From Verrucomicrobiota bacterium (GTDB taxonomy: Bacteria > Verrucomicrobiota > Kiritimatiellia > JAAZAB01), in contig JAHIJO010000005.1 of NCBI GenBank assembly GCA_018898455.1, positions 6,591 to 70,590 on the forward strand: 64,000 nucleotides of DNA, written 5' to 3'. Made by a program: the position numbers and the translations under genes. The notes beneath the pieces are model-generated. The model saw only the letters and a list, made by a program, of their open reading frames with translations. It searched no databases and was not told where the DNA came from. Of this stretch, positions 224 through 47,212 are shown piece by piece. Every line of letters begins with the position of its first letter. Position 1 is the first letter of the stretch.

Positions 224-239
224 GGTTTATTAACGCCTT

Positions 240-7119: not shown

Positions 7120-7133
7120 GAAGCCAAGAATAT

Positions 7134-8204: not shown

Positions 8205-8369
8205 AATTCCCCTGCCCCCGTGATCGGTACTCCTTGCCGTTCTCTCGAACGGCCGCGACATCATTATGTCACGCATGCCTGGGTAGCAACGGTTTGACAG
8301 AACCGCAGACCGTGCCGCATGGCAGAAGCGGATTCCTCGCAGGCGTCCTTCGCCTGTGAGACATCCGGG

Positions 8370-9431: not shown

Positions 9432-9450
9432 AATCCAATCTCCCGTTCCT

Positions 9451-10677: not shown

Positions 10678-10729
10678 GGGGAACCGCCAGGATCAGGAAT
10701 AGCATCCCTGCCGTCCGACTCGATGGAGA

Positions 10730-10993: not shown

Positions 10994-11062
10994 CGTGAAA
11001 TCCCCCTTCCCTATGTTGTTTCCGATTTCTCTGCCACGACAGCGCCTTGGGCGCCAAAAGCT

Positions 11063-11881: not shown

Positions 11882-11897
11882 GGCATCCTCGGGCAGG

Positions 11898-14191: not shown

Positions 14192-14231
14192 ATTATTTTT
14201 CTCCCCGGTTTTGAATTCAGGGTAATCTTTA

Positions 14232-15767
14232 TCAGCGGCCTTTTTCCTCGATGGGTTCCAAATAGGTTTTCGGTTCAAGGTTCAGCAGAATTCGGATCTT
14301 ATCCAGCAGGTCGTTGGGCGTAAACGGCTTGGCCAGAACTTCATCCGCCCCATCCCGTACCACTTCGGTCAGCGAATGGACATCTCCTGATATGATCAAA
14401 ACCTTGCTGTTATGTTGGCGCGATTGCTGCCGCAAGGAAAGCAACACCTGTTCCCCGCCCACTTCCGCCAGATGCATATCGAGAATGATAAGATTCGGCT
14501 TGAATTCTCCAGCGATGATCAGCGAATCGAGTCCGCTCAACGTTGACTTGACCTCCAGCTTCAGGTCGGAATACCGAAGCACTTTTTCAATCATCCGGAC
14601 AACAAGTTCCTCGTCGTCAACAATGAGGATCCGGGAGGGCAGTTCCTTATCGTACACCGGGAGGGTGAATGAAAAGCAACTCCCCTTGCCAATCGTGCTG
14701 TCAACCGAAATACAGCCGCCATTGAGTTCCACCAGGCTCTTGGCAATTTTCAATCCAAGACCGGTACCCTTGGTGCCCGGACCGTCCTTGCGATCGATCT
14801 GGACGAAGGCCTCAAATATCTTTTCCAATGAATCCCGGGGAATTCCGGGTCCCGTATCTTCAACATCAATGCGCAGGAAGCGGCCTTCCTCTTTGGTTCG
14901 AATGCGAAGGGTTCCCTTCTCCGGCGTAAATTTATGGGCGTTCCCGATCAGGTTCGTCAGAATATTATGGACGCTTGTCACGTCGCAATGCGCCATTGGC
15001 AGATTATCAGGAACATCCAGCACCAGCGTCTGTTTTTTGGTTTGGCAGACGGGGGTAAAATCATTGCGAAACTGCATCAGCAAGGACGTCAAATCCGCTT
15101 TGGTTCTGTGCAATTCCGCCTTACCGGCTTCAATGCGGGCCAAGTCCAGTATCCGGCTGATCAGGTCGGTGAGCTTGTCGCAATTGCGAAGAGCCGCATC
15201 GAGGCATTTGCACTGTTTTTCATTCAGCGGACCTACGGTCTCGTCCCGGACAAGCGACACAAATTCCCGGATGATCGCCAACGGGGTCCGGATCTCATGC
15301 GAAACTTCAGCTACAAATTGGGATTTGGTCTCGTTTAATTCGCGCAAACGTTTCAAGGCCTCCTGGCTGTTCTTCTTCGCGCTATGGCGCTCAATGGCAT
15401 AGCGCAGGGCATGAACCAGCGCGCCAATATCCCCCTGCCCCTTGATCAAGTAATCCTGCGCGCCTTCCTTGACCAGTTGGGAGGCCAGGGCTTCATCCCC
15501 GACACACGTTAAAACGATAATCGGGATTTCGGGGAATCGCCCGTATACTTTCCTGAATGTTTCCAGTCCACGGCTGTCCGGTAGAATCAGGTCCAGCATG
15601 ACCACCTCAGCCTGGCTTTCGGCCAGCCATGAGAGCGCCGCATCGAGTCGGCCAACCGACGCAATATTGAAATTGGTATCTTTGGTATGAAGCAGTTGTT
15701 CCTTGATCAATACCACTTCATCCGGATTATCCTCAACCAGCAGAATATTGATGCGTTTGGATTTCAT
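14232..15767 (-). CDS. Hybrid sensor histidine kinase with N- and C-terminal receiver domains (REC-HisKA-HATPase-REC)
   Basis: N-terminal REC (INILLVEDNPDE..MLDLILPD), HisKA H-box (VSHEIRTPL), N/G1/G2 boxes (NLIGNAHKFT, DTGPGIP, GTGLGL), C-terminal REC (RILIVDDEELV..DMHL). Confidence 0.85.
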   Translation of the reverse strand: MKSKRINILLVEDNPDEVVLIKEQLLHTKDTNFNIASVGRLDAALSWLAESQAEVVMLDLILPDSRGLETFRKVYGRFPEIPIIVLTCVGDEALASQLVKEGAQDYLIKGQGDIGALVHALRYAIERHSAKKNSQEALKRLRELNETKSQFVAEVSHEIRTPLAIIREFVSLVRDETVGPLNEKQCKCLDAALRNCDKLTDLISRILDLARIEAGKAELHRTKADLTSLLMQFRNDFTPVCQTKKQTLVLDVPDNLPMAHCDVTSVHNILTNLIGNAHKFTPEKGTLRIRTKEEGRFLRIDVEDTGPGIPRDSLEKIFEAFVQIDRKDGPGTKGTGLGLKIAKSLVELNGGCISVDSTIGKGSCFSFTLPVYDKELPSRILIVDDEELVVRMIEKVLRYSDLKLEVKSTLSGLDSLIIAGEFKPNLIILDMHLAEVGGEQVLLSLRQQSRQHNSKVLIISGDVHSLTEVVRDGADEVLAKPFTPNDLLDKIRILLNLEPKTYLEPIEEKGR

Positions 15768-27590: not shown

Positions 27591-28687
27591 GATCCATTTC
27601 ATCGCTGAAAAAAACGCTTTCCATCGCGCTGCGACTGGCGCTGGCCTTCGGAATCATCTTTTACCTCCTGCATAAAATCGACATGCAGGCTCTGACGCTG
27701 ATCCTGCGGGAAAGTCTGAGCCAATGGGAATGGCTCATTGCCGGCATCGTGCTCAGCTATCTAGCCCTGCACGCCGGCATGATCCGGTGGAGCATCATTC
27801 TCGACGCCCAGGGACTGGAAATGTCAGCAAAGCGCTGTTTCAGCGTGTATTTCATCGGGCAATTTTTCAACTCGTTCATGTTCGGTTCCACCGGGGGCGA
27901 CCTGATCCGCGCCTTTTACGCGGCGAAGGAAACCCATCACAAGAAGACTGAAGCCGTGGCTACGGTGTTCATTGACCGGATGATCGGGCTCATCGCCCTC
28001 TATCTGATTGCCGCGATCATGCTGACGGTTCGAGTAAAGTTTTTCCTGAGCCAGTGGGAAACCCATCTGCCGGCGCTGATCATGATCGGCATGATCCTGG
28101 CCACCATGGTCGCCCTGATCGTGGTCTTCAATATCAATCGTTTTGCCAACTGGCCGCTGGTGGACAGAATCAAGCGGCACCCGACGCTCGGACGAACAAT
28201 CAAGCGCGTGTTGATTTCCATCTATCTGTACCGGCGCCGGACAGGCGTCCTGATACGGACCTCGCTTCTGTCGCTTTTAATCCAGGCGCTCACCGTTACG
28301 CAATGCTACTGCATCGGCCGGTGTTTCCAGATCAATATTGGCGTCGTGGATTACCTGACGGTCATTCCCATTATCATATCAATCGCGGCCATCCCGATCA
28401 CTCCCGGCGGACTGGGCATCCGCGAGGGACTCGCCGTCACCCTGCTCGGCGCGATGGGCGTCAACAGCGCTCAGTCTCTGCCGCTGTCCCTGATGATTTT
28501 CTTTATCTCCGTGGCCTGGAGCCTGGTAGGCGGCGTGATCTTCATGGGGTATTCAGCGAGCTCCGGACACACGGTCCACGAGGAAATGGTCGAGCTCGAA
28601 CACGAGACGGAGAGCGAAGACGGGGAGGAAGGGATCCCGAGCGCCCATGAACAAGACAACGTCATCCGAACGTGCCAGGGCCAATAA
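27587..28687 (+). CDS. Lysylphosphatidylglycerol-synthase-TM-like / flippase-like membrane protein (UPF0104 family)
   Basis: ATG overlaps the upstream stop (ATGA). 8 or so TM helices and the PGGLGIREG motif diagnostic of the LPG_synthase_TM family. Acidic C-terminal tail. The 3' end overlaps convergent murC by ~135 nt. Confidence 0.7.
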   Translation: MRSISSLKKTLSIALRLALAFGIIFYLLHKIDMQALTLILRESLSQWEWLIAGIVLSYLALHAGMIRWSIILDAQGLEMSAKRCFSVYFIGQFFNSFMFGSTGGDLIRAFYAAKETHHKKTEAVATVFIDRMIGLIALYLIAAIMLTVRVKFFLSQWETHLPALIMIGMILATMVALIVVFNINRFANWPLVDRIKRHPTLGRTIKRVLISIYLYRRRTGVLIRTSLLSLLIQALTVTQCYCIGRCFQINIGVVDYLTVIPIIISIAAIPITPGGLGIREGLAVTLLGAMGVNSAQSLPLSLMIFFISVAWSLVGGVIFMGYSASSGHTVHEEMVELEHETESEDGEEGIPSAHEQDNVIRTCQGQ

Positions 28688-29938
28688 CCGGGCTTGCAAG
28701 TCGTCATAACCGCCCACAGCCTCGGCCGCCACGCCCGCGCGCGCCAGGCGCTCCACGAGCCGGACGGAATCAACCGTTGCCTGGACCGTACCCCCCGCGT
28801 AATACACCGGCATGATCAGCACACGATCATCGCCACGAATCACGGCGGCAAATGCCCGGGTAAGTTCCTCCATCATCAAGGCCAGCGGCGCAAAACCGTG
28901 CGGGCGCCACACGGCAATGACCCGCTTAAAATGAGGCGCCACAGCTTGCCAGGCGGCCGTGATTTTGGCCGGATTATGCGCATAATCATCGATAACCGTC
29001 ACGCCTTTGGCCTTACCAATCCATTCCAGGCGCCGCTGAATTCCGCGAAAGGTGGTCAAGGCGCGGCTTACTTCCGGCAGGCTCAGCCCCAGGCGCTCGC
29101 ACATCCGGACACAATGCAGGGCGTTCTCAGCGTTATGCCGCCCAAGCATGGTAATTTCAAATACCACCCCCTGGTAATCAAACGCACACCCCTGCGCCGA
29201 CAGGCGGGGCTGAAATGTGTCCGGGAAATCCGGCGGGGCACCATAACAGCCCACCACGCCGCGCCGGACTTTGCAGGCAAACTCCTGAAACAGCCGCCGG
29301 ACTTCATCCAGCTCAAAATGATCCTTCGAGATGTTGGTAATGACCGCCCAATCCGGATCAAACTGCAGCAACGAACGATCGCTTTCATCCGCTTCCAGCA
29401 CCCAGATTGCGCCTTGACCGATCCGCACATTGCCAATGGCATCATCGGTCATCCAGTTGAGCACGGCGCCGCCGTTGACCACCATGGGATCCAGCCCCAT
29501 CTGTTCCAATACCCATCCGATCATGCCGGTGACGGTCGTTTTGCCGGCGGTGCCGGTCACCGCAATCGTGGTGACGGAACGAGCCAGGCGGGCCAGCATT
29601 TCGGCCCTATGGATGATGGGAACTCCCAGCCGGCGCGCCGCCGCCAGATCAGGGTTATCCGGTTCAATGGCCGTACTGACAACTACGCCGGCGGTGTCGG
29701 GCCGGACGCCGGCCCCGTCCTGCGGGACGAGGCCCACGCCGGCCCGGCGGAGTTTATCCAGAACGGACAATTCCTGGCCACTATCGAGATAGCGATCGGA
29801 CCCCGTAACCTTGAACCCCTGGGCCAATAGGACCTGGGCCAGGGCGCTCATACCCACGCCGGCAACCCCGACCAGATGAACATGGGCAGGCGGTTGAATA
29901 ATTGTCCGCCGAGGAAGGAACTTCGTATCCATCGTCAT
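28553..29938 (-). CDS. murC: UDP-N-acetylmuramate--L-alanine ligase (Mur ligase family)
   Basis: N-terminus VHLVGVAGVGMSALAQVLLAQGFKVTGSD.. and ..GVPIIHRAEMLARLAR.. match MurC. Mur ligase middle-domain GTAGKTT P-loop. Confidence 0.7.
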   Translation of the reverse strand: MTMDTKFLPRRTIIQPPAHVHLVGVAGVGMSALAQVLLAQGFKVTGSDRYLDSGQELSVLDKLRRAGVGLVPQDGAGVRPDTAGVVVSTAIEPDNPDLAAARRLGVPIIHRAEMLARLARSVTTIAVTGTAGKTTVTGMIGWVLEQMGLDPMVVNGGAVLNWMTDDAIGNVRIGQGAIWVLEADESDRSLLQFDPDWAVITNISKDHFELDEVRRLFQEFACKVRRGVVGCYGAPPDFPDTFQPRLSAQGCAFDYQGVVFEITMLGRHNAENALHCVRMCERLGLSLPEVSRALTTFRGIQRRLEWIGKAKGVTVIDDYAHNPAKITAAWQAVAPHFKRVIAVWRPHGFAPLALMMEELTRAFAAVIRGDDRVLIMPVYYAGGTVQATVDSVRLVERLARAGVAAEAVGGYDDLQARLLALARSDDVVLFMGARDPFLPVFALRLVFELDHFLVDRVSGAR

Positions 29939-30037
29939 TACTATCTATCTTTATAACATAAAAAGTGCGAAAAATGAGTGAGGCAGAACGTCCAGCATGT
30001 CCGGCGCGAGCACCGCCTACGGACCATGCCGTTGGAT

Positions 30038-31285
30038 TCAGTCTTGACTCAGCAGGTCAATCAAGTTCTCAAAACGTCGCGCGATATACGAGTACTCGCA
30101 CTTGCCTTTCACATCCCGATCGTCACGAAGTGTGCGAAGGGCATCCGCAATCAGTTTGCGATCCGTTGTGATGATGTCTTCAATGAGCGGGGCCGCAGAG
30201 TTCGAGTAGAAGACCTCGCGGACGTTGCCATAGGTTGTTCGTCCACCCCGCGAGCCAAGATAGGTCAAGACTAGGTACTTCAGAATCTTCTCCTTCGGGT
30301 CGTCAGGGCAGAAAATGAAGCCACTGACCTCTGTGAATGATCGAATCACGTCCCCGTGTTTCTCGTATGCGCCCCAGCTTGTTCCTATAGCGTGCATGGC
30401 ATTGTAGATGGAATCAAAAAAGTCAATCACCTGAGAACGCTTGAGATAGGAGAGTAGGCCCATTGCAGAGGCTACGCATGCCTGCCGACGATCAAGCGTC
30501 GTTCGTCCAATCTTCTCCTGAAGGTGCTTGGCCAGACTGAGGCGAACGGCATTCTGCGTCAATGAGGACAATCTCGTCAGAAAAGTGAAGGCGTTCTGCT
30601 GAACAATCTCCGACTGCCCTTTGTTCAGCGAAACACTCATCAGAAACTTCAGGATCTCTTCCTGCCGAGGGGCAGGAGCAGACCGGAATTCCTCAAGAAG
30701 TGTCTCTGTCGGAACAGCCGGAGTTGCTCCTTCGACAATATCCTTAACGTCCGTAACTCTGAGCAACTGCACGGGGTCTCGCGACAGCACAACGTCTATG
30801 CATGTTCTGAATACATAGACGCAGTCTTCGATTCCTGCCTCGTACTCATCATCCTCATGCTCTAGGTCGCGTCTAATTTCATAGCAGCGCGACAGTCGCC
30901 TCCATTCCGGACGTGAAAGGAATCCTATTTTGTAGGCAAGGTCAACCAGTTTTGCCGTGGGATAATGTTCCAGATCCTCTGCCGTTGCCACAGGAGGGAG
31001 CTTCGCCTGAATTGCTGCCTCTTTGGCGATGTCCAGACCAGCAACAATGATTTTCTCACGCAGATCATGGATGGCCGCATTGAGGATGCGTTGACAGGCG
31101 CTACTTGGATCGACTTCAAGGAGACGTTGAACCCTTGTGATCAGATTCTTGGTTTTCCACGACGGCCTAATCTGGTCCATCAAGGAAGGCACCTCCGACC
31201 TGCGGATGATCTCAACATGTTCGGCTGGTACGATTTCGTTTGTCATATTTTTTCTATCCAACGTCCTGCACACTCCCACCCTCAA
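30038..31285 (-). CDS. Hypothetical protein, fourth gene of the restriction-modification operon (no recognisable domain)
   Basis: Start (TTG 31285, or ATG 31246 MTNEIV..) overlaps the vsr stop (TTGA). 400-415 aa, no Walker or nuclease motifs detected. Codon/GC usage similar to the RM genes. Confidence 0.55.
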   Translation of the reverse strand: MRVGVCRTLDRKNMTNEIVPAEHVEIIRRSEVPSLMDQIRPSWKTKNLITRVQRLLEVDPSSACQRILNAAIHDLREKIIVAGLDIAKEAAIQAKLPPVATAEDLEHYPTAKLVDLAYKIGFLSRPEWRRLSRCYEIRRDLEHEDDEYEAGIEDCVYVFRTCIDVVLSRDPVQLLRVTDVKDIVEGATPAVPTETLLEEFRSAPAPRQEEILKFLMSVSLNKGQSEIVQQNAFTFLTRLSSLTQNAVRLSLAKHLQEKIGRTTLDRRQACVASAMGLLSYLKRSQVIDFFDSIYNAMHAIGTSWGAYEKHGDVIRSFTEVSGFIFCPDDPKEKILKYLVLTYLGSRGGRTTYGNVREVFYSNSAAPLIEDIITTDRKLIADALRTLRDDRDVKGKCEYSYIARRFENLIDLLSQD

Positions 31286-31737
31286 CTTACCCGTCTGCGG
31301 GCAAGTTGTAGTGGTGGAGTGCGTTGCTGGACAATTGCTTTCAATTTCTGGACCTTCCGCGATTTCTTGCCAACCGTCAAATCATGTTCCCACAATCTGA
31401 TGACAAACCATCCTGTTAGTCGCAGAAAGAGATTTGTTTTTTTGTCCCGCGCCTTGTTGTGTTCGATCTTCGCCCGCCAGTAGGCGCGTTTGCTGTGCGG
31501 CATTCGGCAGTGCCGGGGGCAACCATGCCAGAAGCAACCGTCAACAAAGACGGCTACGCGCTCACGCGGGAAAACGAAGTCGGGCTTCCCATGAACGGGG
31601 AGTCTGCGCCGCCAGCCGGTGATGCCGGTTTCCCTGAAAAGCTGGATCATGCGCAACTCCGTCGAGCGATTCCCTTCGGACTTCACTTGCGACATGATGC
31701 GGGATCTGGTTTTTGGCGTCACGTTGTCCATAAGCAA
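31282..31737 (-). CDS. vsr: Very short patch repair endonuclease
   Basis: ..TELRMIQLFRETGITGWRRRLPVHGKPDFVFPRERVAVFVDGCFWHGC.. is the canonical Vsr signature (FVDG.FWHG). Confidence 0.9.
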   Translation of the reverse strand: MLMDNVTPKTRSRIMSQVKSEGNRSTELRMIQLFRETGITGWRRRLPVHGKPDFVFPRERVAVFVDGCFWHGCPRHCRMPHSKRAYWRAKIEHNKARDKKTNLFLRLTGWFVIRLWEHDLTVGKKSRKVQKLKAIVQQRTPPLQLARRRVS

Positions 31738-32841
31738 TCATAGGGAAATAATCGTCCGGGGCCTCTTGTTCAGGAGTTTGGCTTCCAATAGGGATTTCGG
31801 GGGTATGCTGGCGGCTTGCAGCAGTTTATTGAAGTCGGTGTCTCCCTGAATCGGGGGTATCTGCCCGGCATAGAGGTTGTCCACCTCCAACGGGCGGATG
31901 CCAGTGCGGGAACGTGCCGCATAGCGTAGGCTGAGAATGTTCACTTCCTTCAACACTTCCGAAATCAGTTTCCGCATATTCAAGTCGGTGGTGTTGGAGA
32001 TATAGGCGGCGAGCGCATCTTGAAGAATCCAGATGGTTTGGCCGCCCCATGCTTTCCCGATCTGCGACTTGACGATCAACTGACTAACCATTCGCGCCCA
32101 GACCTGCCTGTAGTTGATACCTGGCGCTGCGTGCGGTTGGCCCAGGATGGCCTTACGGAAGGCATTCTGAATCGTCGTTCCCTTGGTCTTGTTCCCACCC
32201 GACGTGCTTGAAGTCATAACCTCGATCACTAAGGGCTGGCCTGCCGGGTATTCTTCGATGTACTTCCGACCGCCACGACTTGCGAGTGTGTAACCGTTCT
32301 TGGTCAAGGCAGATTCAAGTTTGCGCTCGATAATTCCGAGTGTGTTTGCCGTTTCGGAAAGCAGTTTCGGGCGGATTGGACAAATGATGTAGTCGAAGGT
32401 GTAATCAAAGATCTTATCGGCGTCGGCCTCATCTTCGGCCTCCTCCGAGTGCTTGATCTTCACTTCAGACCAGACGCCGGCCTTGCAGGGCAAGGCGTTG
32501 GGTGCGAATCGCCGCAACAGACCTTCGCAGAAGCCCTCGTGTGATGTGTGACCTCCGCCCTTATCCAAGACAAAGAGACGGCGGGGGCAAACGATCCACG
32601 TTTCATCGGACGTGGAAAGCGAACACACGCCAGCCGGAATGTCCGCTGTCTTGCCGTCAAAGAACGTGACCAGTTCGCGGTCGCGGGTCGCGTCAAGGTG
32701 TAAGAACGATTGATAGCGATTGCCGCCGCCGTCACACATCTGTCCCATGAATGGGCAAAGACACTGTTTTCGGTGTCGTTTGGCTTCTGCTGTGTGGTCT
32801 TCTGTAAGGAATCCAAATAATTCATATATCTTGGAACTCAT
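31738..32841 (-). CDS. Type II restriction endonuclease, NotI-family-like
   Basis: N-terminal Cys cluster (..CLCPF..C....GVC......WIVCPRRLF) parallels the NotI Fe-Cys4 motif (..CPF..C..GVC...WLVCPNRAL). Central ..VIEVMTSS.. resembles the NotI catalytic region. Confidence 0.65.
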   Translation of the reverse strand: MSSKIYELFGFLTEDHTAEAKRHRKQCLCPFMGQMCDGGGNRYQSFLHLDATRDRELVTFFDGKTADIPAGVCSLSTSDETWIVCPRRLFVLDKGGGHTSHEGFCEGLLRRFAPNALPCKAGVWSEVKIKHSEEAEDEADADKIFDYTFDYIICPIRPKLLSETANTLGIIERKLESALTKNGYTLASRGGRKYIEEYPAGQPLVIEVMTSSTSGGNKTKGTTIQNAFRKAILGQPHAAPGINYRQVWARMVSQLIVKSQIGKAWGGQTIWILQDALAAYISNTTDLNMRKLISEVLKEVNILSLRYAARSRTGIRPLEVDNLYAGQIPPIQGDTDFNKLLQAASIPPKSLLEAKLLNKRPRTIISL

Positions 32842-34043
32842 GCTAACACCTTCGCGATCTGCGCCGCAACCACTTGCGCGAGTGGCGGGGGTACGGAGTT
32901 GGCGACAAGTCGGTGCTGATCAAGGTTTTTGACTGTCCCCGATCTGCTACGGATGGGCCCGCAGAGAATGTACTCGTCCGGATATCTGTGAAGGCGCAGA
33001 TACTCGCGGGGGGTCAAGTATCTATCCTCGACGGGATGGAAGAATATCTCGCCGCAACGAAGGGTTAAGGATGGTTCGAGCCGATGCAATCTGCGGTACT
33101 TCGTCGTGTCCTTTTTCGTAAGGTTGCATTTCAAATCTGGTGGAGCATTCAGGGTTCCGGCCAAGAAACCGCCTTCGGCTACGGGGTGAATACGTTCACG
33201 ATCACGGTCGGGGGTCACGTCAACATGGTTCGGGAAAGCGGGTTGAGTTCCTTTTGCTGCTGGTGGCGGCAGGCCGCCTAGGACCGTCCCCGATCCGACA
33301 TATGGTTTGAGCGTGAAGAGGGGCGTTTCTTCGGGGTCTTCGGCATGAGTGGGCGGCGGGAAAGAGAAGCCATTTTCGCCCTTTCGCGCCACGATGAAGA
33401 CGCGTTCGCGCAGTTGCGGGACGCCATAGTCGGCGGCGCAAAGCACAGCCCACTTGACGCAGTAACCGAGTTGTTCGAGTTCGCGGATGAACCGTTTGAA
33501 GACGCCGCCTGCCTCGCCCTTTTCGTCGGGGGCGCTCAACAGTCCTTTTACTTGTTCAAGCAAGATAGCGCGAGGTTTCAAGGCCGCAGCAAAGCGGATC
33601 ATCTCAAATAGGAGGAGGCCGCGTGAGTCGCCGAGGGAACCGCGTTTGCCGATGAGAGAGAAGGCTTGGCACGGTGGCCCACCGTGAAGGAGATCAATTC
33701 CAGGCTCCGCCACTGCAAGAGGGTCAACCATGCGGATGTCCGCTTCGACGATCTTTGTCTCGGCATTTTTTCGTTTGGCGTTGAACCGCAGGGTCTCGGC
33801 GGCATTCGGATCGAACTCCACACAAGCGAGATTCCTGAACCCGGCGGTTTCGACGCCGATGTCCATCCCGCCTCCGCCGCTGAACAGGGAAACCGAAGTC
33901 AGTTTGCGGCCATAACCGGCGGCGGACTCCTTCACCATGCGGGGCTTCTTGGCGCGTTTTTTCACGCTTTTGCTCATGGGGCTACTGTACACCATTCGCC
34001 TGTCTCTTGGTAGTGTCATTTTTCTGTCTTGTCCAACATCCAT
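32838..34043 (-). CDS. DNA (cytosine-5)-methyltransferase
   Basis: Motif I SLFSGGGGMDIG, motif IV GGPPCQAFS, motif VI ENVKGL-like (LLEQVKGLLS). Overlaps the endonuclease gene start by 4 nt. Confidence 0.9.
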   Translation of the reverse strand: MDVGQDRKMTLPRDRRMVYSSPMSKSVKKRAKKPRMVKESAAGYGRKLTSVSLFSGGGGMDIGVETAGFRNLACVEFDPNAAETLRFNAKRKNAETKIVEADIRMVDPLAVAEPGIDLLHGGPPCQAFSLIGKRGSLGDSRGLLLFEMIRFAAALKPRAILLEQVKGLLSAPDEKGEAGGVFKRFIRELEQLGYCVKWAVLCAADYGVPQLRERVFIVARKGENGFSFPPPTHAEDPEETPLFTLKPYVGSGTVLGGLPPPAAKGTQPAFPNHVDVTPDRDRERIHPVAEGGFLAGTLNAPPDLKCNLTKKDTTKYRRLHRLEPSLTLRCGEIFFHPVEDRYLTPREYLRLHRYPDEYILCGPIRSRSGTVKNLDQHRLVANSVPPPLAQVVAAQIAKVLA

Positions 34044-34060
34044 TCAACAATAATCTGAAG

Positions 34061-34079
34061 TTCAACGTTGAGCGTTGAA
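34061..34079. promoter_or_regulatory. Palindrome TTCAACG-TTGAG-CGTTGAA in the RM operon promoter region
   Basis: 7-bp perfect arms with a 5-nt spacer, extended imperfectly (CTGAAGTTCAACG / CGTTGAAAGTTGTTCAG). 20-40 nt upstream of the MTase ATG (34043). Confidence 0.3.
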
Positions 34080-34105: not shown

Positions 34106-35164
34106 TCAGGGATACTTGCCCGGCTGATTGAGCCCATCCGTTTCCGGAAACCCGAAAAGGAGGTTCATATTTTGCAGCGCGGACCCCGCCTGCCCTTTCA
34201 TGAGATTGTCGATATGCGAAATGATCCGGAGCTTATTCGTCCGGGCATCGACATCCACGATCAGATTGCAGTAATTTGTGCCGCGGACATGGGCCGAACC
34301 GATTCCTGAATCGCGATCAAACAGACGCACAAAGGTCTGGCCCCGGTAAAACTCCCGGTACGCGGAGGCCACATCGTCCGCAGATATGCCGTCAGCCAGT
34401 TCGCCGTAGAGCGATGACATGATCCCTCGGCAAACAGGCACCACCTGGGCTGTAAAAGCAATCTTCAGGGCAGTCCCGGCAAGCAAGCCCAACTCCCGCT
34501 CAATTTCGCAGACATGCTGATGCCCCGCCAGTTTGTAGGCATTCATGTGGTCGTAGCGGGCCGGATAATGAAATCCGGCCGACGGCTTCTTACCGGCGCC
34601 CGAAACGCCGGTCTTGCAGTCACAGATGATGCTATTGAACCGGATGAGACGCTGTTTGACTGCCGGCGCCAGACCCAGGATACAGCTGACGGCAAAACAA
34701 CCGGGATTGCCGACAATCCGCGTTGTCGCACCCAATTCCTTGCGATGCAATTCGGTCAATCCGTAAACCGCCGGAGGAAGCAGTTCCGGGGAAGCATGCT
34801 TGGGATCCCGCCCGATACGCGTCGCATATTCGGCATAGCTTTCCGTTGAATTAAACCGGAAATCTCCGCTGTAATCGATGACTTTGACGCCGGCCTTCAA
34901 CTCGGCCGGGGCAAGTTTCATACCAACGCCGTCAGGAGTGGCCATGAAAACCACGTCCACAGGCTCCTTTGCTTTCGGATCGTCCGCGCCGATAATGGGC
35001 AGGTCGCAGAAGCCCGTCAAATGGGGATAGAGCTTGCTGATCGGCACGCCGACATCCGTCACATCCACGAGACAGGCGATTTTCGCCCGGGGATGCCCCA
35101 TCAGCAGTTCCGTGATGCCCACGCCGCCATACCCGCCCGCGCCAATGATTTTCACCTTAATCAT
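34106..35164 (-). CDS. argC: N-acetyl-gamma-glutamyl-phosphate reductase
   Basis: MIKVKIIGAGGYGGVGITELL.. and active-site Cys motif GNPGCFAVS. Confidence 0.9.
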   Translation of the reverse strand: MIKVKIIGAGGYGGVGITELLMGHPRAKIACLVDVTDVGVPISKLYPHLTGFCDLPIIGADDPKAKEPVDVVFMATPDGVGMKLAPAELKAGVKVIDYSGDFRFNSTESYAEYATRIGRDPKHASPELLPPAVYGLTELHRKELGATTRIVGNPGCFAVSCILGLAPAVKQRLIRFNSIICDCKTGVSGAGKKPSAGFHYPARYDHMNAYKLAGHQHVCEIERELGLLAGTALKIAFTAQVVPVCRGIMSSLYGELADGISADDVASAYREFYRGQTFVRLFDRDSGIGSAHVRGTNYCNLIVDVDARTNKLRIISHIDNLMKGQAGSALQNMNLLFGFPETDGLNQPGKYP

Positions 35165-35247: not shown

Positions 35248-36492
35248 TCAGCTGACCGTTTGGTGGGCAATGCGGGTCCATTCGTCAAATCTTTCCGGAT
35301 GGTTATTGCACGTATGGGTATCCAACAGCACAATTTCCAGAATGCATCCATGGTGGCGAGCGGTCTCGACCGTATGGCGCAGGTAACTCTCGATTCGTGA
35401 CGGATTGAAAGCGCCCACCAGGTGCGCCGGCTGCGGCTTCCACATGAAAATAACCTCCCCCTTGATCCGTTGTGCGCACTGCTCCACATTGGCCCATGGG
35501 GAAATCGAGACACGACGCAGATTGGGAATGGTGAGCACAAAGTCCAGCTTCCTGGTGACGTCATCGCAGCAGCCATAACCATTGAGGCCAAAAGGCATCA
35601 GCAGGCGCTTTTCATAGGGGAAAGCAAACTCTGCGTGCATTTCCGGCGAAACCACCGCCATTTCCTGCGCTTCCGCCCAGCCCCACATGTTTTCGGGCCG
35701 GACATGATCAGGATCATATCCCGGCTGGGGCAATTGATCCGTATAGCCGTATCCGCTCGTATAAATTGGGGTGTTGTCGTTGTTGAGGCTCAACAAATCC
35801 TGTTCCACGTACTGCCGCAAGACCCGCCGATGTCCTTCTTCAAAAAACGCCATCGCCTCGTGGAGCATCTGCGGATTGTCGAGCATGTCCACCAGGACCT
35901 CCTGCAGTCCCCGCAAGGCGGTGTACTGGTTCATCAGGTGATAAGAGAGGTCGCAAACTCCCTTCAGCCTGACTTCCAGAATGTCCCCGAATAGTGCCTG
36001 GAAGAAATCGTGTTGCTCCCGGGTCGCCACGGCGTCATAAATGATTTCAGGAAATCTTAATTTCTTAAGATCGTCAGCCGCCAGAATGACCGGTTCAAAA
36101 CCGAACGCCCCACGGGCATCGTCAGAGTGGGTGCGCCGCGGAGTCAGCCCCCACCCGGAATGATGGATTACCTTACGCACCACCCATTCCTTCTCAATCA
36201 CATTGTCACTCGCAAAATGCTCGGCAACGTAGATGCGGCGGCGTAATGCCAGTTCTATCCCCCGCGCCACCTTGTCCCGACAAAGCAACGCATCCTCCGA
36301 AATCAGCTCGCACCACGCCCCTTGCGGATCAACGTAAACGACGGGGCGGACCGGCTCCAGCGCATTGTGCCGCCGCCAAAGATCACGGCGTGTGGCCATG
36401 ATCGGGCCGACTGCAATTTCGGCAACCCGCCGGGCAAGATCGCGTACTATTTGCCTGTCTTCGGAGTAGATTGACGGGGGTGTCGCTGGCAT
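35248..36492 (-). CDS. Uroporphyrinogen-decarboxylase (URO-D) family-like protein, paralog of 38472..39665
   Basis: Shares a series of aligned motifs with the other URO-D-like ORF (MLDNP/MYEDP; ..FAFPYEKRLLMPF / ..FVFPYHKRLFDEF; GYGCCDD / IHLCGD). Confidence 0.5.
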   Translation of the reverse strand: MPATPPSIYSEDRQIVRDLARRVAEIAVGPIMATRRDLWRRHNALEPVRPVVYVDPQGAWCELISEDALLCRDKVARGIELALRRRIYVAEHFASDNVIEKEWVVRKVIHHSGWGLTPRRTHSDDARGAFGFEPVILAADDLKKLRFPEIIYDAVATREQHDFFQALFGDILEVRLKGVCDLSYHLMNQYTALRGLQEVLVDMLDNPQMLHEAMAFFEEGHRRVLRQYVEQDLLSLNNDNTPIYTSGYGYTDQLPQPGYDPDHVRPENMWGWAEAQEMAVVSPEMHAEFAFPYEKRLLMPFGLNGYGCCDDVTRKLDFVLTIPNLRRVSISPWANVEQCAQRIKGEVIFMWKPQPAHLVGAFNPSRIESYLRHTVETARHHGCILEIVLLDTHTCNNHPERFDEWTRIAHQTVS

Positions 36493-36548: not shown

Positions 36549-38399
36549 TTATGAAGATTGCAGTTTAACAGGCCATTCGAAGCTATTTAAACCCGGGTGG
36601 ACATCGAGAAACATCAACGTAGCGGGATAACCGGCAATACCGTCTAGGATAACCGTTCCTGACTCCGGAACCGAATAGCCCCAAAGACATACAGGCAGAT
36701 GTGACAATTCTCGTGGCGCATTGACAACAAACGAAACCGCCGCGCCGCGCATGGTCTCCTGTAGAGTTGCGGCAAAGCCGCTTAGATCCACCATCGCCAT
36801 CTGCCGGGTTTCCGGCATGTTCTGCACACGGCGGTAGTCATACCACCAGAAGGGCAGCCACGGCGCACCCTTATGTTGCGGCTGGATGGTCACCCGCGCA
36901 CAAGGTGCAATGTCGGCATTTTGGGCGGGCTCATCGATAATGGGACGTTTTAAAAATGCGGCCTTCCCATTCTCGCCACACCAAACCAGTGTTTCGGGAA
37001 ATACCTCTGGTTTGCCCAGATGCGGACCAAACTGATCAAAACCCAGTTTGTCCTTCATCACCTGCCGCACAGCCTGCGGCGCCGTCAAATCGGCCACGAT
37101 ATCATGGACAACATAGCTCTGATCAGGCGTCGTAGCCAGGTGGCGTTGAAAGTATTTGGCCACATCGGCTTTATGGGAAAAGATCACCTGCCCGGAACGG
37201 CCCCGGTTGCCAAAATACTGGAGTATCATACGATTGCCGGCCACAATCCCCGGACATTCATTATCGCCCATTTCGACCGGGCCACACAATACCACCGGCA
37301 CTGCGGCGCGGTTCGCCGCGATGGAGGCATACATTTCTTCCTGGAATTCAATGTACTTGTCCAGCGTCCGGCTGACATCAATGGACGGTCCGCCTGCAAG
37401 CGGATCGGTTTGCCGCCAACAGCGGATGAACATCGCCATGTCATTGCTGTGATCCGTATACCCGGCATGGCTCAGCACGGGGTGCCGCAAATCGGCCGGA
37501 AATATGAGCACTGGGGAAGGCCATTCATCGCGGTGGCCCGCCTTTCTGAAATCCTCCCGGCGGACGTAATAGGGGAAATTGGACATTCCGAAATGATACT
37601 GCCTCCAGCCGTAGTCCCAACGGGAGCCGCCATCGTTGAAATCGTGTTCACTGAATACACCGTCGATTCCAACCAATTCCTCCAGGCTGCAGGCCTCCAC
37701 CAACGTATTGTTGGGGGTGTAATGGCCGACCATCTCGAACGGCGGCAGATTCCATCTTTGCCAGTGCTCCTGCAGTGCCTGCAGGAATTTCCGACATTCC
37801 CCCACGGACAGTCCATGGGCGGTAGGATTGGGCAAAGGACCAAAAACCTTCCCGCCGCGGAGTCCTTTGAGTTCCGGTACAAAGAACTCCGCCAGGGCAA
37901 AATCCAGAAAAGGGTAGACCTTGCACGACGTCGACCTGTGGTGGTTTTTCAAATTGTCAATGGCATACCAGGTGCGGCTTAGGAATTCATCCCCGGCGGT
38001 ACAGATTTCGATATCCGCCGGCAGATGGTATCTTTGGAACTCCGGTCCGTAGAAATCATGAAGATTGCCGCAGCCATGCCACGCCGAGGTAAAGAACACC
38101 CACATCGTCTGGACGGCAATCCCCGGCGCCCAGACGCCAAAATACGCCGTCCTCTCGTCCGCGCCCTTCCCGATGCCGGCATAGTAGTTTCCGGGCGCAG
38201 AAGGCGTATAGGACGCCTGGGATTTATAACCATCCGAAGCCTGCTCCCATAGAAGCGGCAAGGAACACCGCTGGGTTCCGTTCTTCTCGAGGTAACGCTC
38301 GTATATGATGAGTGAGTCAGGCCCGGGTTTGTCGGCTTCAATAAGGAAGGAAAGGGTTTCACCGACGTTGACCAGTCCGCCGCTTGTTTGGATTCGCAT
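36549..38399 (-). CDS. Hypothetical protein (616 aa), no signal peptide, possible carbohydrate-active enzyme
   Basis: Single long ORF in an operon-like array with URO-D-like and oxidoreductase genes. No family recognised. Confidence 0.5.
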   Translation of the reverse strand: MRIQTSGGLVNVGETLSFLIEADKPGPDSLIIYERYLEKNGTQRCSLPLLWEQASDGYKSQASYTPSAPGNYYAGIGKGADERTAYFGVWAPGIAVQTMWVFFTSAWHGCGNLHDFYGPEFQRYHLPADIEICTAGDEFLSRTWYAIDNLKNHHRSTSCKVYPFLDFALAEFFVPELKGLRGGKVFGPLPNPTAHGLSVGECRKFLQALQEHWQRWNLPPFEMVGHYTPNNTLVEACSLEELVGIDGVFSEHDFNDGGSRWDYGWRQYHFGMSNFPYYVRREDFRKAGHRDEWPSPVLIFPADLRHPVLSHAGYTDHSNDMAMFIRCWRQTDPLAGGPSIDVSRTLDKYIEFQEEMYASIAANRAAVPVVLCGPVEMGDNECPGIVAGNRMILQYFGNRGRSGQVIFSHKADVAKYFQRHLATTPDQSYVVHDIVADLTAPQAVRQVMKDKLGFDQFGPHLGKPEVFPETLVWCGENGKAAFLKRPIIDEPAQNADIAPCARVTIQPQHKGAPWLPFWWYDYRRVQNMPETRQMAMVDLSGFAATLQETMRGAAVSFVVNAPRELSHLPVCLWGYSVPESGTVILDGIAGYPATLMFLDVHPGLNSFEWPVKLQSS

Positions 38400-43572: not shown

Positions 43573-44412
43573 TCATAGCTTCATAAATCTGCCTATTGCT
43601 TTAGCCTTAAGGGCCACATCCAGAATCCGGCGGATCATCAGACTTTCCGCCCGGTCAATGGTCGCTTTTCCGGCCTCAAACAAATCCAGGATCGCCGCGG
43701 CCATATCCAGAAAGAGGCGCGCACAGTCCTCAATAATGATTTTGGTTTCTTTGTCCGTGGTGACGCTGGCCGCATACGGGGTGGCGGCGTTAGTGTACAC
43801 ATTGATGACGGCGGTGCGCCCGCCGCTGAAGTCAACGACCAACTGCCGCTGGTTGTCTGCGCCCCGCAACATGAGGCGTTCGGCGTTTGGCCCCATGCAA
43901 CTGACGACCAGTTCCACGGGATGAATCGCATATTCTTCAAACGAGCTGCCGCCTCCCCACGCCACCATGTGGCGGACATTGGCCGCACCCACCTCGCGGA
44001 CATGGGCCTGTATTTTCGTATAGCGGAGCGCAGAGGTGGTTTGCATGGCAACGCCGCACTTATCGGCCAACGCAAATAGTTTTGCGGCTGTCTTGAGGTC
44101 CGGCGCAAAGGTCTTGTCCACGTAGGTCGGCTTGCGCATGGGAAACACCTTCTTGCACAGCGCCCAATGCGTTTCGGGATTGGACGGCGCCAGAATCATG
44201 TAATAATCCACGGCCTTATCCAGCTTGGCGACGGAATCGAAATAGGGCACGCCGTTCTTTTCCGCCCATTGCCGGCCCATTGCCTCCTCCATGCCAAAAC
44301 ACCCATCGACGGTAAAGCCACGACCGCGCAGTTCTCCCCGAATCGCCGCGAGATAGGTATTCGCATGAAAGTTATCCAGCTTGAAATCCACAAAACCAAT
44401 TCGTTTGTTCAT
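43573..44412 (-). CDS. Gfo/Idh/MocA-related oxidoreductase with degenerate N-terminal nucleotide-binding motif
   Basis: Central ..AVDYYMILAPSNPETHWALCKKVFPMRKPTYVDKTFAPDLKTAAKLFALADKCGV.. matches the Gfo/Idh/MocA core (..H.e.a..al.aGKhV..EKP....eea.el...a.k.gv). Lacks GxGxxG at the N-terminus. Confidence 0.5.
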   Translation of the reverse strand: MNKRIGFVDFKLDNFHANTYLAAIRGELRGRGFTVDGCFGMEEAMGRQWAEKNGVPYFDSVAKLDKAVDYYMILAPSNPETHWALCKKVFPMRKPTYVDKTFAPDLKTAAKLFALADKCGVAMQTTSALRYTKIQAHVREVGAANVRHMVAWGGGSSFEEYAIHPVELVVSCMGPNAERLMLRGADNQRQLVVDFSGGRTAVINVYTNAATPYAASVTTDKETKIIIEDCARLFLDMAAAILDLFEAGKATIDRAESLMIRRILDVALKAKAIGRFMKL

Positions 44413-44559
44413 GAATGATTTCCTTCACTTATGATGTTGTTGACGGTATGGACCTGATTTTGCCAAAATACTCGCGGCGCCATGGCTGACTCCACTCGCT
44501 TTTGGCATTCCTTCCGGACGAAGATGGCCCCTTGTTTTCGCCGCACTTCGCAATCAAAA

Positions 44560-45387
44560 CTAATCGTTATTTTGTTGGCCCTGTGCCTTGAGCTTTTCCA
44601 CATATTTTTCGAAAAGCGCTATATCCTTTCTGATCATATCCTGATCATCCTTAATAAACATTCCTACGCACACAACATCGTTATTGCGAACTGCATTGCC
44701 AAGAACTTCGAATGCGGGGATTATGGGTTTATTACCACCCGCAAAAACTTTGTAATGGACTACAGGCTTTTCAATAGTCGCAATGGTTTTCAGCATTCGC
44801 TTGCGGTCGTCATCATTCCACTTTTCATCCACGGAAATATGATGTGGGCTACGAGTGCGATCTGTCGGATTATAATGCGAACACATCTGGAAGTCGACAT
44901 CGAGGTTGTCGCGAACCCATTCGTGTGACTCGGGTCTATGCCCGGCGAATCCTACAGGCGCCCCGCAATCCCGTATCATGCGGAAGGCCTCCCTTAGATT
45001 GTCAAACAGACTGTTGGCATGCCAGAAATCCGTTTCCCCTCCATGAATGTATATGGCCGTTGCCCCGGATTCCAAAGATGTCTGTATCCACGTTTTCCAA
45101 CTGTCGGCTTTATCCTTTTCTTCGCATACTTGCGCAAACCACTGGATGGTTCCGCCATTGCCCCAATAGTCGCGTAGGACCGCGATAATATGATCGTCAG
45201 CACGCGCAAAGAGGGTATTTATACCGGCATACTCGGCGGCGCGCAACGTCTCTTTGATGCGTTCGGGAGTGAAATACTCGGTCATTTCCCGGCTGCGCTC
45301 ATTCCCCTGATGGGAAAACCCGGCAAACGGGTTTCCTCCTATACATAGACCGGAGACCTGCACTTTCCCGATGGCAACTTTCCTCAT
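44560..45387 (-). CDS. Hypothetical protein (275 aa)
   Basis: ATG 45387 with AAGGGAA RBS. Same strand and operon-like spacing as neighbours. No family recognised. Confidence 0.45.
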   Translation of the reverse strand: MRKVAIGKVQVSGLCIGGNPFAGFSHQGNERSREMTEYFTPERIKETLRAAEYAGINTLFARADDHIIAVLRDYWGNGGTIQWFAQVCEEKDKADSWKTWIQTSLESGATAIYIHGGETDFWHANSLFDNLREAFRMIRDCGAPVGFAGHRPESHEWVRDNLDVDFQMCSHYNPTDRTRSPHHISVDEKWNDDDRKRMLKTIATIEKPVVHYKVFAGGNKPIIPAFEVLGNAVRNNDVVCVGMFIKDDQDMIRKDIALFEKYVEKLKAQGQQNND

Positions 45388-45625
45388 ATTCGTTCCCTTC
45401 TTGAATTTGATAAATAATTCTTCCCAAAAGAAAATTGTATTTTTTAAGAATTGTTTTTGTAGCCGCAGCGCCCGTGAGGGCGTGGATGCTTCCGGCGGCG
45501 TCACCCCGCCCTCCGAGGCGAGGCCTCGCCCCGATACAGGGCGGGCGCCAGCGGTTACATGAAACAGTCGCCGCCTTTGGCGGCTTAATTCATACGTCCT
45601 CGGAAAGTCCGGCGATTAGAAACCA

Positions 45626-47212
45626 TCAAGCAATAGAAGGCCATTCGAGTTCGATCTTCTGATCTGCAAGAAGTTTCTGAAATTCACCGAGAACTTCGCC
45701 GCGTTCCGCCACCTGGCGCGGATAAACCTTGTTTTGCAGACAAAATGCCGCCAGAAGCCCGGCAGATTCGCCGATATTCCATTCGACGGGATGAAGGCGG
45801 TAACATCCATTTGTAATATGAGTTGTTCCAATATTTTTACATGCGGGAATAAGATTTTTCATGCGAACAGGAATCATACTGCGCAAAGGAATTTGAAACA
45901 AGGTCGCACCACAGTGTATATAATTGTTTCCTCCCGATGAAGGGTGAAGATCAATGTGATAGGATCCAATTCCAACGCTGTCTTTGAAAAAAGACGCCGT
46001 ATGATTGTCGCTAGATTCTTTCGTGACGTGTAATTCTGTTATTGTAAATAATGCCTTGATGCGCCTGGATTCCCTTATGTAGGGATATTTTGCCAAGCCA
46101 TCTTCCGTTCCCGTAATATCCGGGCGGGGATACAAGCCGGGATATCCAATTCCGCCATCCGGTCTTGGCGCCTCTGTCTGCAGCCAGTAAAGCAGACTCA
46201 GCGACAGATCTTTTGAAGCATGCAAATGTTTTTGGATTTCATCTTCAGACTTGTCAATGATATTTCCATTTACATAGTCATTTTGCGGCCAATTAATCAG
46301 GGTAACCTCATCAATCGGGGCATTATAATGATCGGAACATAGCAGTCGGCGATAACGCCATAAATCACTTGTGTCAGCAGCTTGAATCGGCAAATCCATG
46401 AGCCCTATTCCGCTTGCCTGGGGTTTGAGTGTCCAAGGCTGCGAATAGGTCCAACTCAATAATCGTCCGGACCATGGCGGACTCATGGATGGGGTAAAAT
46501 TCTTCCAGAACTGATAATTTGACGGTTTGTCAATTATATGACTGCATTTAGGATCATAACCGACAGCAAGACACCAAGTGAATGATTGCACATTGTCCGG
46601 TTGAGCCGGACCGGATACCGCATGCGGTTCTCCCGTTTCATCCGCTGATTCGGCCCCGACGACATATTCAGATCCTGACAATGCCAGTAGGTCGCCCAAC
46701 TCGGTAGCATCCAGAATATAATCCGCTTCTATAAAGTCTCTTTCGCCGGTTTCGGAATTGAGGAGTGCTACGCTTATAATTGAATCCCCGGAAAGATCAA
46801 CTTCCACAGGCTTGCGTTTCAACAGGATTTTCAATTTATTCGAGGCCACGGAACAAGCCAGCATCTGTTGAAGCACATGCAATCCTACCCGCGGCTCAAA
46901 ACATAATTTCGACACGTTTCCTTTGCCGGGATTAAGGAAAGGATCATTTTGTGCCACCGTGGTCAACGGATAATTGTCTTTATAATATTGCCGGACTTTG
47001 TTACGAAATTCACGGTACCGGCCTGTGCAACCATGTGTTTCAATAGCATGATGCTCATCCGGTGGCGCGGCTTGGGACGTTAATTGTCCGCCGATCCAGT
47101 CCGTTTCTTCCGTCATTATTACATTTAGATTAACCGAACATGCGCTAAGCGCCGCAGCGCAGCCTCCAGCGCCGCCGCCAACAATAAGCAAACCTGTTTT
47201 ATATTCAGCCAT
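45626..47212 (-). CDS. FAD-dependent oxidoreductase (FAD_oxidored family)
   Basis: N-terminal dinucleotide-binding motif LLIVGGGAGGCAAAL. ~530 aa. Confidence 0.8.
   Translation of the reverse strand: MAEYKTGLLIVGGGAGGCAAALSACSVNLNVIMTEETDWIGGQLTSQAAPPDEHHAIETHGCTGRYREFRNKVRQYYKDNYPLTTVAQNDPFLNPGKGNVSKLCFEPRVGLHVLQQMLACSVASNKLKILLKRKPVEVDLSGDSIISVALLNSETGERDFIEADYILDATELGDLLALSGSEYVVGAESADETGEPHAVSGPAQPDNVQSFTWCLAVGYDPKCSHIIDKPSNYQFWKNFTPSMSPPWSGRLLSWTYSQPWTLKPQASGIGLMDLPIQAADTSDLWRYRRLLCSDHYNAPIDEVTLINWPQNDYVNGNIIDKSEDEIQKHLHASKDLSLSLLYWLQTEAPRPDGGIGYPGLYPRPDITGTEDGLAKYPYIRESRRIKALFTITELHVTKESSDNHTASFFKDSVGIGSYHIDLHPSSGGNNYIHCGATLFQIPLRSMIPVRMKNLIPACKNIGTTHITNGCYRLHPVEWNIGESAGLLAAFCLQNKVYPRQVAERGEVLGEFQKLLADQKIELEWPSIA

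Follow-up and report, generated by a model that had tools for sequence, protein, structure and literature searches.

Is a compact block of four head-to-tail genes, built around a restriction-modification (RM) system, a single operon or a stack of separate modules, and what does its last gene encode? The question is raised by positions 30038..34043 of a 64-kb stretch of contig JAHIJO010000005.1, which belongs to a Verrucomicrobia metagenome-assembled genome (MAG); the whole of this stretch is referred to here as the window. Four long open reading frames (ORFs) follow one another on the minus strand, and all are present where an earlier note on this DNA had placed them:

32838..34043, minus strand, the first ORF, a C5 cytosine DNA methyltransferase (MTase) of 401 aa
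31738..32841, minus strand, ORF2, a candidate NotI-fold type II restriction endonuclease (REase) of 367 aa, whose start overlaps the MTase stop
31282..31731, minus strand, Vsr, starting at ATG 31731 or TTG 31737; 151 aa from the first possible start (31282..31737)
30038..31246, minus strand, ORF4, of 402 aa; 415 aa from the first possible start (30038..31285)

The earlier note had joined the four genes into one translationally coupled operon. We find that the RM module and ORF4 are two independent modules. Our favoured reading, to which we assign a probability of about 0.68, is that 34066..29987 is a two-cassette cluster of integron attC sites without an integrase (CALIN), and that ORF4 is a stand-alone candidate RNase of the HEPN type that would act in abortive infection.

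Independence of the fourth gene from the restriction-modification module

Two surveys of related loci address the operon directly. The survey of ORF4 covered 80 genome loci with a homolog, together with an all-against-all census of neighbours and a Pfam census of 282 flanking ORFs. The RM survey covered 80 metagenomic loci encoding relatives of ORF2 (L084-L163), which were searched for the partner genes with tblastn. ORF4 is found at none of the RM loci (0/38 with at least 1.7 kb of downstream sequence, 0/80 overall), and a homolog of the REase at none of the 80 ORF4 loci. A Dcm and Vsr pair lies near ORF4 at only 2/80 loci, and neither census reveals a conserved partner of ORF4. In DNA comparisons, the RM module matches its relatives over 34037..31323 and ORF4 its own over 31265..30031, with a sharp break between the two. 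The earlier note had staked its proposal on the fourth gene recurring in other instances of the RM operon, and it recurs in none of the 80 sampled. Given this mutual absence, the homology break and the separate attC-like ends described below, the single four-gene operon has to be given up, and ORF4 is not to be read as a specificity or control factor of this RM system.

The junctions between the genes had all been described as 4-nt overlaps, which holds for one of the three. The MTase and REase genes do overlap by 4 nt, at ATGA 32841..32838. Here the long REase start giving 367 aa is preferred over the 336-aa database call, because the N-terminal 31 residues are conserved across the whole family alignment. 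The REase stops at TGA 31740..31738, and Vsr abuts it at TTG 31737 or, more likely, begins at ATG 31731; a Vsr start within an ATGA at 31741 was considered and discarded, as that ATG is out of frame for Vsr. The TTG at 31285, which a TTGA overlap of ORF4 with Vsr would need, was likewise rejected, since the homologs, the NCBI call and the DNA homology boundary at 31265 favour ATG 31246. The homologs are all ~400-405 aa long and begin there, and the NCBI annotation of the identical protein (KKG09_09100, from a Verrucomicrobia MAG) has 402 aa. With this start, the spacer between Vsr and ORF4 is 35 nt. A promoter and terminator scan and a repeat search around the block gave nothing above chance, and the window holds no tRNA genes and no Rfam matches.

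Genes 1-3 are a type II RM module, ordinary in kind but with an REase family that is unannotated. The C5-MTase and Vsr assignments of the earlier note are borne out. The MTase matches PF00145 (E=4e-55), TIGR00675 and the PADLOC model MTase_II (E=1e-75), and its closest solved structure is M.HaeIII (E=5e-27, catalytic domain only). Vsr scores 112.5 bits against TIGR00632 (cutoff 97.85) and 64.4 bits against PF03852 (E=9e-18, cutoff 27). The NotI-like endonuclease was also called correctly: the AlphaFold model of ORF2 is confident (pLDDT 88.3, pTM 0.87, built on 27 homologs) and has the three-dimensional fold of NotI, with 18% identity to NotI (PDB 3bvq) in the structural alignment. At the sequence level, ORF2 has no match in Pfam or NCBIfam at E<=0.1 and none among PDB sequences, either as a single protein or as a family profile, and the profile did not find NotI; the PADLOC models give a weak match to REase_II (E=0.004). 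The cysteines C29, C36, C73 and C85 are invariant or nearly so in the family alignment, and NotI is known to carry an Fe-Cys4 structural motif (PMC4081073).

The ORF2 family numbers more than 1100 homologs of ~365 aa, all unannotated and without a Pfam or NCBIfam model; one database entry is mislabelled as a phage antirepressor, and the rest are called hypothetical. No ORF2 homologs were found on plasmids. At 62 of the 63 loci with enough sequence, the gene directly upstream of the ORF2 homolog is an MTase ortholog, and MTase identity tracks ORF2 identity across loci. The grouping of MTase, REase and Vsr as an RM unit stands, with a tightly coupled and conserved MTase-REase pair. Vsr occurs at 30/65 related RM loci and is thus optional.

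ORF4 keeps different company. Its family comprises more than 1200 homolog clusters of ~400 aa with ~45-60% identity, all annotated as hypothetical, and is distributed over Verrucomicrobia, Desulfobacterota, Alpha- and Gammaproteobacteria, Actinomycetota, Bacteroidota, Planctomycetota, Chloroflexota and Methanophagales archaea. Clustered at 50%, the family is compact, with 253 representatives that are mostly fragments. The closest relatives of ORF4 (82-91% identity) lie in three unrelated settings: a TA-rich, cassette-like array (L081) in which the small genes share one strand and include BrnT/CopG and PemK modules, a position beside hisF/hisH, and an SSB/RadC element. At about 8 of the 80 loci, type I RM genes flank or enclose the ORF4 homolog. 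The order at L049 is hsdR-x-ORF4-hsdS-hsdM (6379..14862), and homologs inside or abutting type I RM operons are also seen at L054 (4355..15584), L062 (5935..15110) and L029 (2230..11203). Some of these operons carry further inserted genes, for a DUF4209 protein at L054 and a KwaB-like protein at L029, and no attC is recognisable at the ORF4 copies of these four loci. Other recurrent neighbours of the family are OLD/AAA_21 ATPases, Mrr, BrxL, KwaB-like and DUF4209 proteins, integrases, relaxases and transposases. An additional defense effector, one of the roles offered by the earlier note, remains the best functional reading of ORF4, but as an independent cassette and not as a member of the RM operon.

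Probable integron-type cassette boundaries

The recombination sites of integron cassettes are recognised by a core, GTTRRRY, and an inverse core, RYYYAAC. Sequences of this kind bound both modules, and the block lies between two housekeeping genes (a slash marks the probable crossover point):

29983..30037, minus strand, attC2, the site of the ORF4 cassette: R'' ATCCAAC at 30037..30031, an imperfect hairpin, GGACG/TT
31256..31329, minus strand, attC1, attC-like, closing the RM cassette: CAGCAAC, G, a long bulged imperfect hairpin, TGCAGGAC, G/TTGGAT
34060..34073, minus strand, left boundary of cassette 1: GCTCAAC, an inverse-core-like 7-mer, followed directly by GTTGAAC, a GTTRRRY core
34106..35164, minus strand, an argC-like semialdehyde dehydrogenase gene, one flank of the block
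28553..29938, minus strand, a Mur-ligase-family gene, the other flank

The case is clearest for the ORF4 cassette. A GTTGGAT core at 31262..31256 precedes the ORF4 ATG by 9 nt (by 16 nt if counted between the first bases of the two), and ATCCAAC, its exact inverse, stands directly 3' of the ORF4 stop. The far end of attC2, GGACG/TT, lies at 29993..29987, with the crossover probably between G29989 and T29988. When the cassette ends are joined as they would be in the excised circle, attC2 folds at -16.6 kcal/mol (z=-4.2 for the top and -4.9 for the bottom strand), and 0/300 shuffles are as stable. In the circularised fold, a 7-bp R box is separated by an unpaired spacer from an L box, which has a single bulged base and is capped by a terminal loop; the same fold is found at L019, L028, L042, L081 and L082. 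L081 and L082, the closest attC-bearing relatives, match the window in the sequence and placement of the cores, and the hairpins enclosed by the cores are unrelated in sequence. Mutually inverse pairs of other sequence are found elsewhere, namely GTTAAAT/ATTTAAC, GTTAGAT/ATCTAAC, GTTAGGT/ACCTAAC and GTTAGTT/AACTAAC. Exact paired cores, in five different sequences, occur at 11/82 loci; 2000 permutations gave 0.47 such loci on average and never more than 4. An attC covariance model of our own was attempted and set aside, as MAFFT put the L-box stems out of register; core-pair statistics and folding were used in its place.

The site that closes the RM cassette, attC1, has its probable crossover between G31262 and T31261. 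Its hairpin is strong (z=-5.8 and -6.2; none of 200 shuffles matches its stability) and is built from an R-box stem of 5 bp and a bulged L-box stem, with 7 unpaired nt as a spacer between them, ending in GGACGTT as attC2 does. A scan combining the attC pattern with folding gave three matches in the window, attC1 among them, against 0-1 in shuffled windows. attC1 is nevertheless less certain than attC2, because its R'' does not follow the consensus. At the other end of the RM module, the GTTGAAC core lies 17 nt before the MTase ATG, with the boundary 33 nt after the argC-like stop, and to judge from these motifs 34060..34073 may be a recombination site.

Taken together, cassette 2 (31261..29989) is well supported and cassette 1 (34065..31262) is plausible, and an integrase would have inserted both. 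The two-cassette reading draws on the paired cores and on the attC-like hairpins that close both modules; the window qualifies only as a CALIN because no IntI-like ORF is present in the 64 kb. Related loci do carry one. At L042, the tyrosine recombinase adjoining the ORF4 homolog matches IntI4 (2a3v) over its full length (E=2.8e-81), and IntI-like matches occur at seven ORF4 loci. For the RM module, an attC array at L093 (2126..2184, 6073..6146 and 7161..7223), present also at L094, has homogeneous sites with shared ends CTAAC...GATGCCGGGCGTTAG, one of them a near-perfect 74-nt palindrome. This array carries a homologous MTase-REase-Vsr set, so that whole RM systems travel as integron cassettes in L093 and L094. 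Sites resembling attC are found at a few other RM loci too.

Some further observations concern these sites and their surroundings. The last ~16 codons of vsr (31282..31329) are encoded by the attC-like hairpin; as homology to other Vsr genes stops at 31323, the C-terminal tail of the protein is probably recombination-site sequence. The third match of the attC scan, at 12110..12190 on the plus strand (GCTCAAC...GTTGAGC), folds stably and is probably a chance match, since it is isolated and the number of matches is comparable to that in shuffled sequence. Streptomyces copies of ORF4 (L036, L037, L039 and L068) share a conserved upstream leader, CGATTCGCGCGAACTGTGCAAGGAG, and a strong downstream hairpin flanked by AAC...GTT or a similar pair; the hairpin may be no more than a terminator, or else the relic of an attC in a phylum not known for integrons. 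Beyond the argC-like gene, two large ORFs (35248..36492, minus strand, 414 aa, and 36549..38399, minus strand, 616 aa) have no Pfam match at E<=0.001. The stretches 1..3000 and 44000..47000 of the window have a G+C content of 0.44-0.50, against ~0.55-0.60 elsewhere, and may be further acquired DNA.

Fold, motif and possible action of ORF4

The earlier note saw no recognisable domain and no nuclease motif in ORF4. This is true of the sequence libraries, where neither the single protein nor the family profile found anything useful in Pfam, NCBIfam, PADLOC or PDB sequences. The predicted structure says otherwise. The AlphaFold (AF2) model is confident (pLDDT 86.8), all-helical, and divides into an N-terminal HEPN fold with an Rx4H motif and a C-terminal solenoid:

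30782..31129, minus strand, predicted HEPN domain, residues ~40-155
30857..30874, minus strand, candidate catalytic motif R125-R-D-L-E-H130 (Rx4H), in invariant columns of the family alignment
30041..30769, minus strand, C-terminal ARM/HEAT-like alpha-solenoid, residues ~160-402

HEPN domains are bundles of four up-down helices, the second and third of which are separated by an insert, and the model shows this arrangement: H1 47-69, H2 71-80, the insert 81-111, H3 112-129 and H4 139-154. HEPN proteins carry their Rx4-6H motif where helix 3 ends or the following loop begins (PMC3710099). R125 and H130 occupy this position, as helix 112-129 gives way to the loop that leads to helix 139-154. The family alignment contains an invariant block, RPEWRR..R.YEIRRDLEHEDDEYEA..EDC.YIF.TC. 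The C-terminal ~240 residues are repeats of the ARM/HEAT/TOG type with an invariant loop, GGRT.YGN.R.VFYSN, that is conserved as far as the sister family described below. The structures named for the ORF4 model are Roquin, the HepT toxins 5yep, 7ae2 and 8xdj, and HI0074, together with sacsin, YutE, Csm6 and MtlR. With the whole ORF4 chain, Foldseek found only weak matches to designed ARM proteins in the PDB, none of them significant. The HEPN assignment thus rests on fold and motif, as no described HEPN family profile matches.

The sister family, found through a gene on the Klebsiella variicola plasmid NZ_CP063918.1 (L164, 5839..7155), comprises more than 900 homologs of ~438 aa and is homologous to ORF4 over the full length (hhalign probability 98.8%, E=9e-17). 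Its invariant R130-N-x4-H136 aligns with R125/H130 of ORF4 and has the canonical HEPN form. The acidic run that follows the motif in ORF4 is not conserved there, and the C-terminal FYSN.AAP loop is. The gene at L164 adjoins the anti-phage gene ppl, a P-loop NTPase and a Fic protein. A precomputed Pfam accession on the sister family, PF27235, is newer than the Pfam copy used and did not appear in the literature search. Two representatives of the 50% clusters, P0449 (870 aa) and P0508 (687 aa), appear to join the first ~180 residues of the family, its HEPN-like domain, to a PAS-GAF-PAS-HisKA-HATPase sensor kinase, an odd pairing for a nuclease domain. On the predicted model, ORF4 is best read as a member of an uncharacterised HEPN-plus-solenoid family that is carried as an integron cassette, and as a candidate HEPN RNase.

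By analogy with characterised systems, the C5-methyltransferase would methylate C5 of its target cytosine and protect host sites. The endonuclease of NotI fold and PD-(D/E)XK type, translationally coupled to it through the ATGA, would cut unmethylated type IIP sites, and Vsr would nick 5' of the T in T:G mismatches that arise from 5-methylcytosine (5mC) deamination. ORF4 may act as a HEPN dimer, with a composite site formed by R125/H130 that would cut tRNA or other cellular RNA in a metal-independent manner. The ARM/HEAT-like solenoid would serve as a sensor or brake, keeping the nuclease silent until an infection cue binds; once the cue is bound, the RNase would fire and lead to abortive infection. 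The RNase activity, the triggered activation and the defence role are all proposed here by analogy.

A bolder form of this proposal is that ORF4 represents a new, integron-mobilised family of self-contained HEPN immune sensors, in which the solenoid loop G-x-x-G...R..FYSN.AAP reads a near-universal infection cue and unleashes the RNase. The family retains more than 50% identity from Verrucomicrobia to ANME archaea. We regard this as tentative and somewhat against the odds; if true, it would be a single-gene abortive-infection system absent from PADLOC and from the Pfam copy used, parallel to the known system DARNA and evolutionarily separate from it.

A number of points weigh against the favoured reading. 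On the side of the protein, no HEPN model in Pfam or PADLOC matches ORF4 even at E<=5, with 22 family members searched, and hhalign of the family against one HepT sequence gave a probability of 0.5%. The residue after the motif arginine is R and not the usual N, D or H, and the invariant acidic run after the motif, EHEDDEYE, is atypical and could mean a different chemistry. No antitoxin or partner was found that would explain how a toxic RNase is kept silent, and auto-inhibition by the C-terminal domain is a conjecture. ORF4 homologs are absent from the phage collection and rare on plasmids. On the side of the cassettes, the attC calls come from our own pattern-plus-folding test and not from the IntegronFinder covariance model. 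As integrated in the window, attC2 has only a marginal folding advantage over shuffles (z -1.4 to -2.0). CAGCAAC, the R'' of attC1, departs from the RYYYAAC consensus and pairs over only 4-5 bp with either candidate R'. A recognisable attC is kept at only ~13-20% of ORF4 loci. The 64-kb window contains no IntI-like ORF, and only 40 nt of it could be attI-like. For the restriction enzyme, palindrome avoidance in the window gives only a generic CTAG-type depletion as a guide to the target site; neither CGGCCG nor GCGGCCGC (2 sites) is avoided.

The alternatives differ in which part of the favoured reading they replace. One would keep ORF4 tied to its neighbours as a PrrC-like guard of this RM system, a HEPN RNase that the restriction complex keeps inactive and that is released when a phage inhibits restriction. 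ORF4 adjoins the RM genes on the same strand, and no terminator is predicted to separate it from Vsr; links to RM systems are known for at least 16 HEPN clades, with the PrrC model as a precedent (PMC3710099); and some ORF4 homologs do stand in or beside type I RM operons (~8/80, as at L049, L054 and L062) or beside a Dcm and Vsr pair (2/80). Such a role is nonetheless very unlikely for this RM system, because the two co-occur at 0/80 loci and ORF4 has its own attC, with the sharp homology break at the junction. Moreover, ~85% of ORF4 homologs have no RM gene within 6 kb, ORF4 lacks the ABC-ATPase regulatory domain of PrrC and RloC, and where RM partners are present they are of different types, so that no specific protein partner of ORF4 can be conserved. 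It is similarly improbable that the attC-like features are a coincidence of terminator hairpins and chance 7-mers, with ORF4 having arrived otherwise, for example by homologous recombination within a defence island. The missing integrase, the non-consensus attC1, the weak folding advantage of integrated attC2 and the many ORF4 loci without a recognisable attC would all fit this view. Against it, the exact inverse 7-mers occupy identical positions in the window and in L081 and L082, co-variation of the cores extends over 11 loci where the null mean is 0.47, DNA homology stops exactly at the cores, the circularised form gains a perfect 7-bp R box (z ~-4 to -5), and a true IntI adjoins ORF4 in related loci.

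Other alternatives concern the protein. The N-terminal domain might be a generic four-helix bundle, in which the RRDLEHEDDEYE segment is a metal or ligand site of some other enzyme or of a scaffold. The domain has no profile-level likeness to any HEPN family, the invariant acidic cluster that follows H130 is not what metal-independent HEPN RNases usually have, and the whole chain has no significant match in the PDB. Yet the R...H pair is the only part of the segment that is conserved in the sister family, where it takes the canonical form RN-x4-H, and its position at the end of helix 3 fits the published definition (PMC3710099); we consider a generic bundle quite unlikely. Somewhat easier to accept, though still unlikely, is a HEPN-fold protein that does not serve phage defence and is instead an addiction or stabilisation toxin that guards cassette arrays against loss, a protein that processes RNA or has a regulatory role, or a factor with which mobile elements counter defence. 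Toxin cassettes are known from sedentary integron arrays, and BrnT/CopG and PemK cassettes occur in the L081 array; the conservation of ORF4 (~57% identity across phyla, ~54% to the archaeal copies) is unusual for a defence gene; the PAS-GAF-histidine-kinase fusions P0449 and P0508 suggest non-immune signalling in some contexts; and PADLOC gives no match. However, no cognate antitoxin gene is conserved beside ORF4, the genes that recur around it belong to defence (type I RM, OLD-like, Mrr, BrxL and KwaB-like, with Ppl for the sister family), and the architecture mirrors that of the proven defence protein DARNA.

The locus has some wider lessons. A tidy "four-gene operon" can be a stack of independently mobile cassettes, and a restriction role assigned to ORF4 through guilt by association would mislead. 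The ORF4 family, with its more than 1200 clusters, offers a testable single-gene candidate for an antiviral RNase with the motif R125/H130. The more than 1100 unannotated restriction enzymes of NotI fold, paired with a C5-methylase, are a potential source of new specificities. Finally, integron-cassette defence reservoirs would be extended to a Verrucomicrobia genome and to an integrase-less attC cluster.

Comparison with known systems

A vsr gene accompanies a cytosine-5 methylase, and its product repairs the T:G mismatches that result from 5mC deamination. The placement of Vsr beside a C5-MTase is common to the Dcm/Vsr type and to the module in the window. Unlike in the Dcm/Vsr type, Vsr is optional in this RM family (30/65), and the 3' end of the vsr gene in the window is encoded by an attC-like hairpin. 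With NotI (PDB 3bvq) and other type IIP PD-(D/E)XK enzymes, ORF2 shares the fold without detectable sequence similarity.

For ORF4, a parallel in architecture is DARNA/PD-T7-3, which joins an N-terminal HEPN domain (R117x4H122) to a Pds5-like helical sensor and is activated by single-stranded DNA (ssDNA) bound by the phage SSB (bioRxiv 10.64898/2026.02.22.705581). The likeness is one of architecture only: PADLOC 2.0, which should include a PD-T7-3 model, gives no match for ORF4 or 22 of its relatives, and the ssDNA/phage-SSB trigger and the dodecameric assembly are features of DARNA. HepS is a solo HEPN anticodon nuclease of abortive infection, activated by a tail-tip protein (PMC13043305). 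It is small, single-domain and carried by a prophage, whereas ORF4 has an added solenoid of 240 aa, is integron-borne and was not found in phage records. With PrrC/EcoprrI and the RM-linked HEPN proteins (PMC3710099), the ORF4 family shares the position of a HEPN gene beside or within RM operons, as seen in the several homologs that lie between hsd genes. PrrC and RloC have an N-terminal ABC-ATPase fused to the HEPN domain, while ORF4 has no ATPase domain and places the HEPN domain at the N-terminus, followed by the solenoid. ORF4 also differs from PrrC in having no fixed RM partner, its association in the window being that of two cassettes side by side.

Integron cassettes (BRiCs; sedentary chromosomal integrons) are described as reservoirs of defence genes, and a HEPN cassette (AbiU2) defends against T4 and T7; an "integron cassette HEPN" (PDB 3jrt) is already listed in PMC3710099. 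As in these integrons, the window has attC-bounded genes of defence type, with an RM module and an abortive-infection-like gene stacked together. It differs from the known examples in its setting in a Verrucomicrobia MAG, in having only two attC sites and no integrase in 64 kb, and in the HEPN family involved. ORF4 therefore belongs to known kinds, the HEPN abortive-infection effectors and the integron defence cassettes, and is not a new component of restriction-modification.

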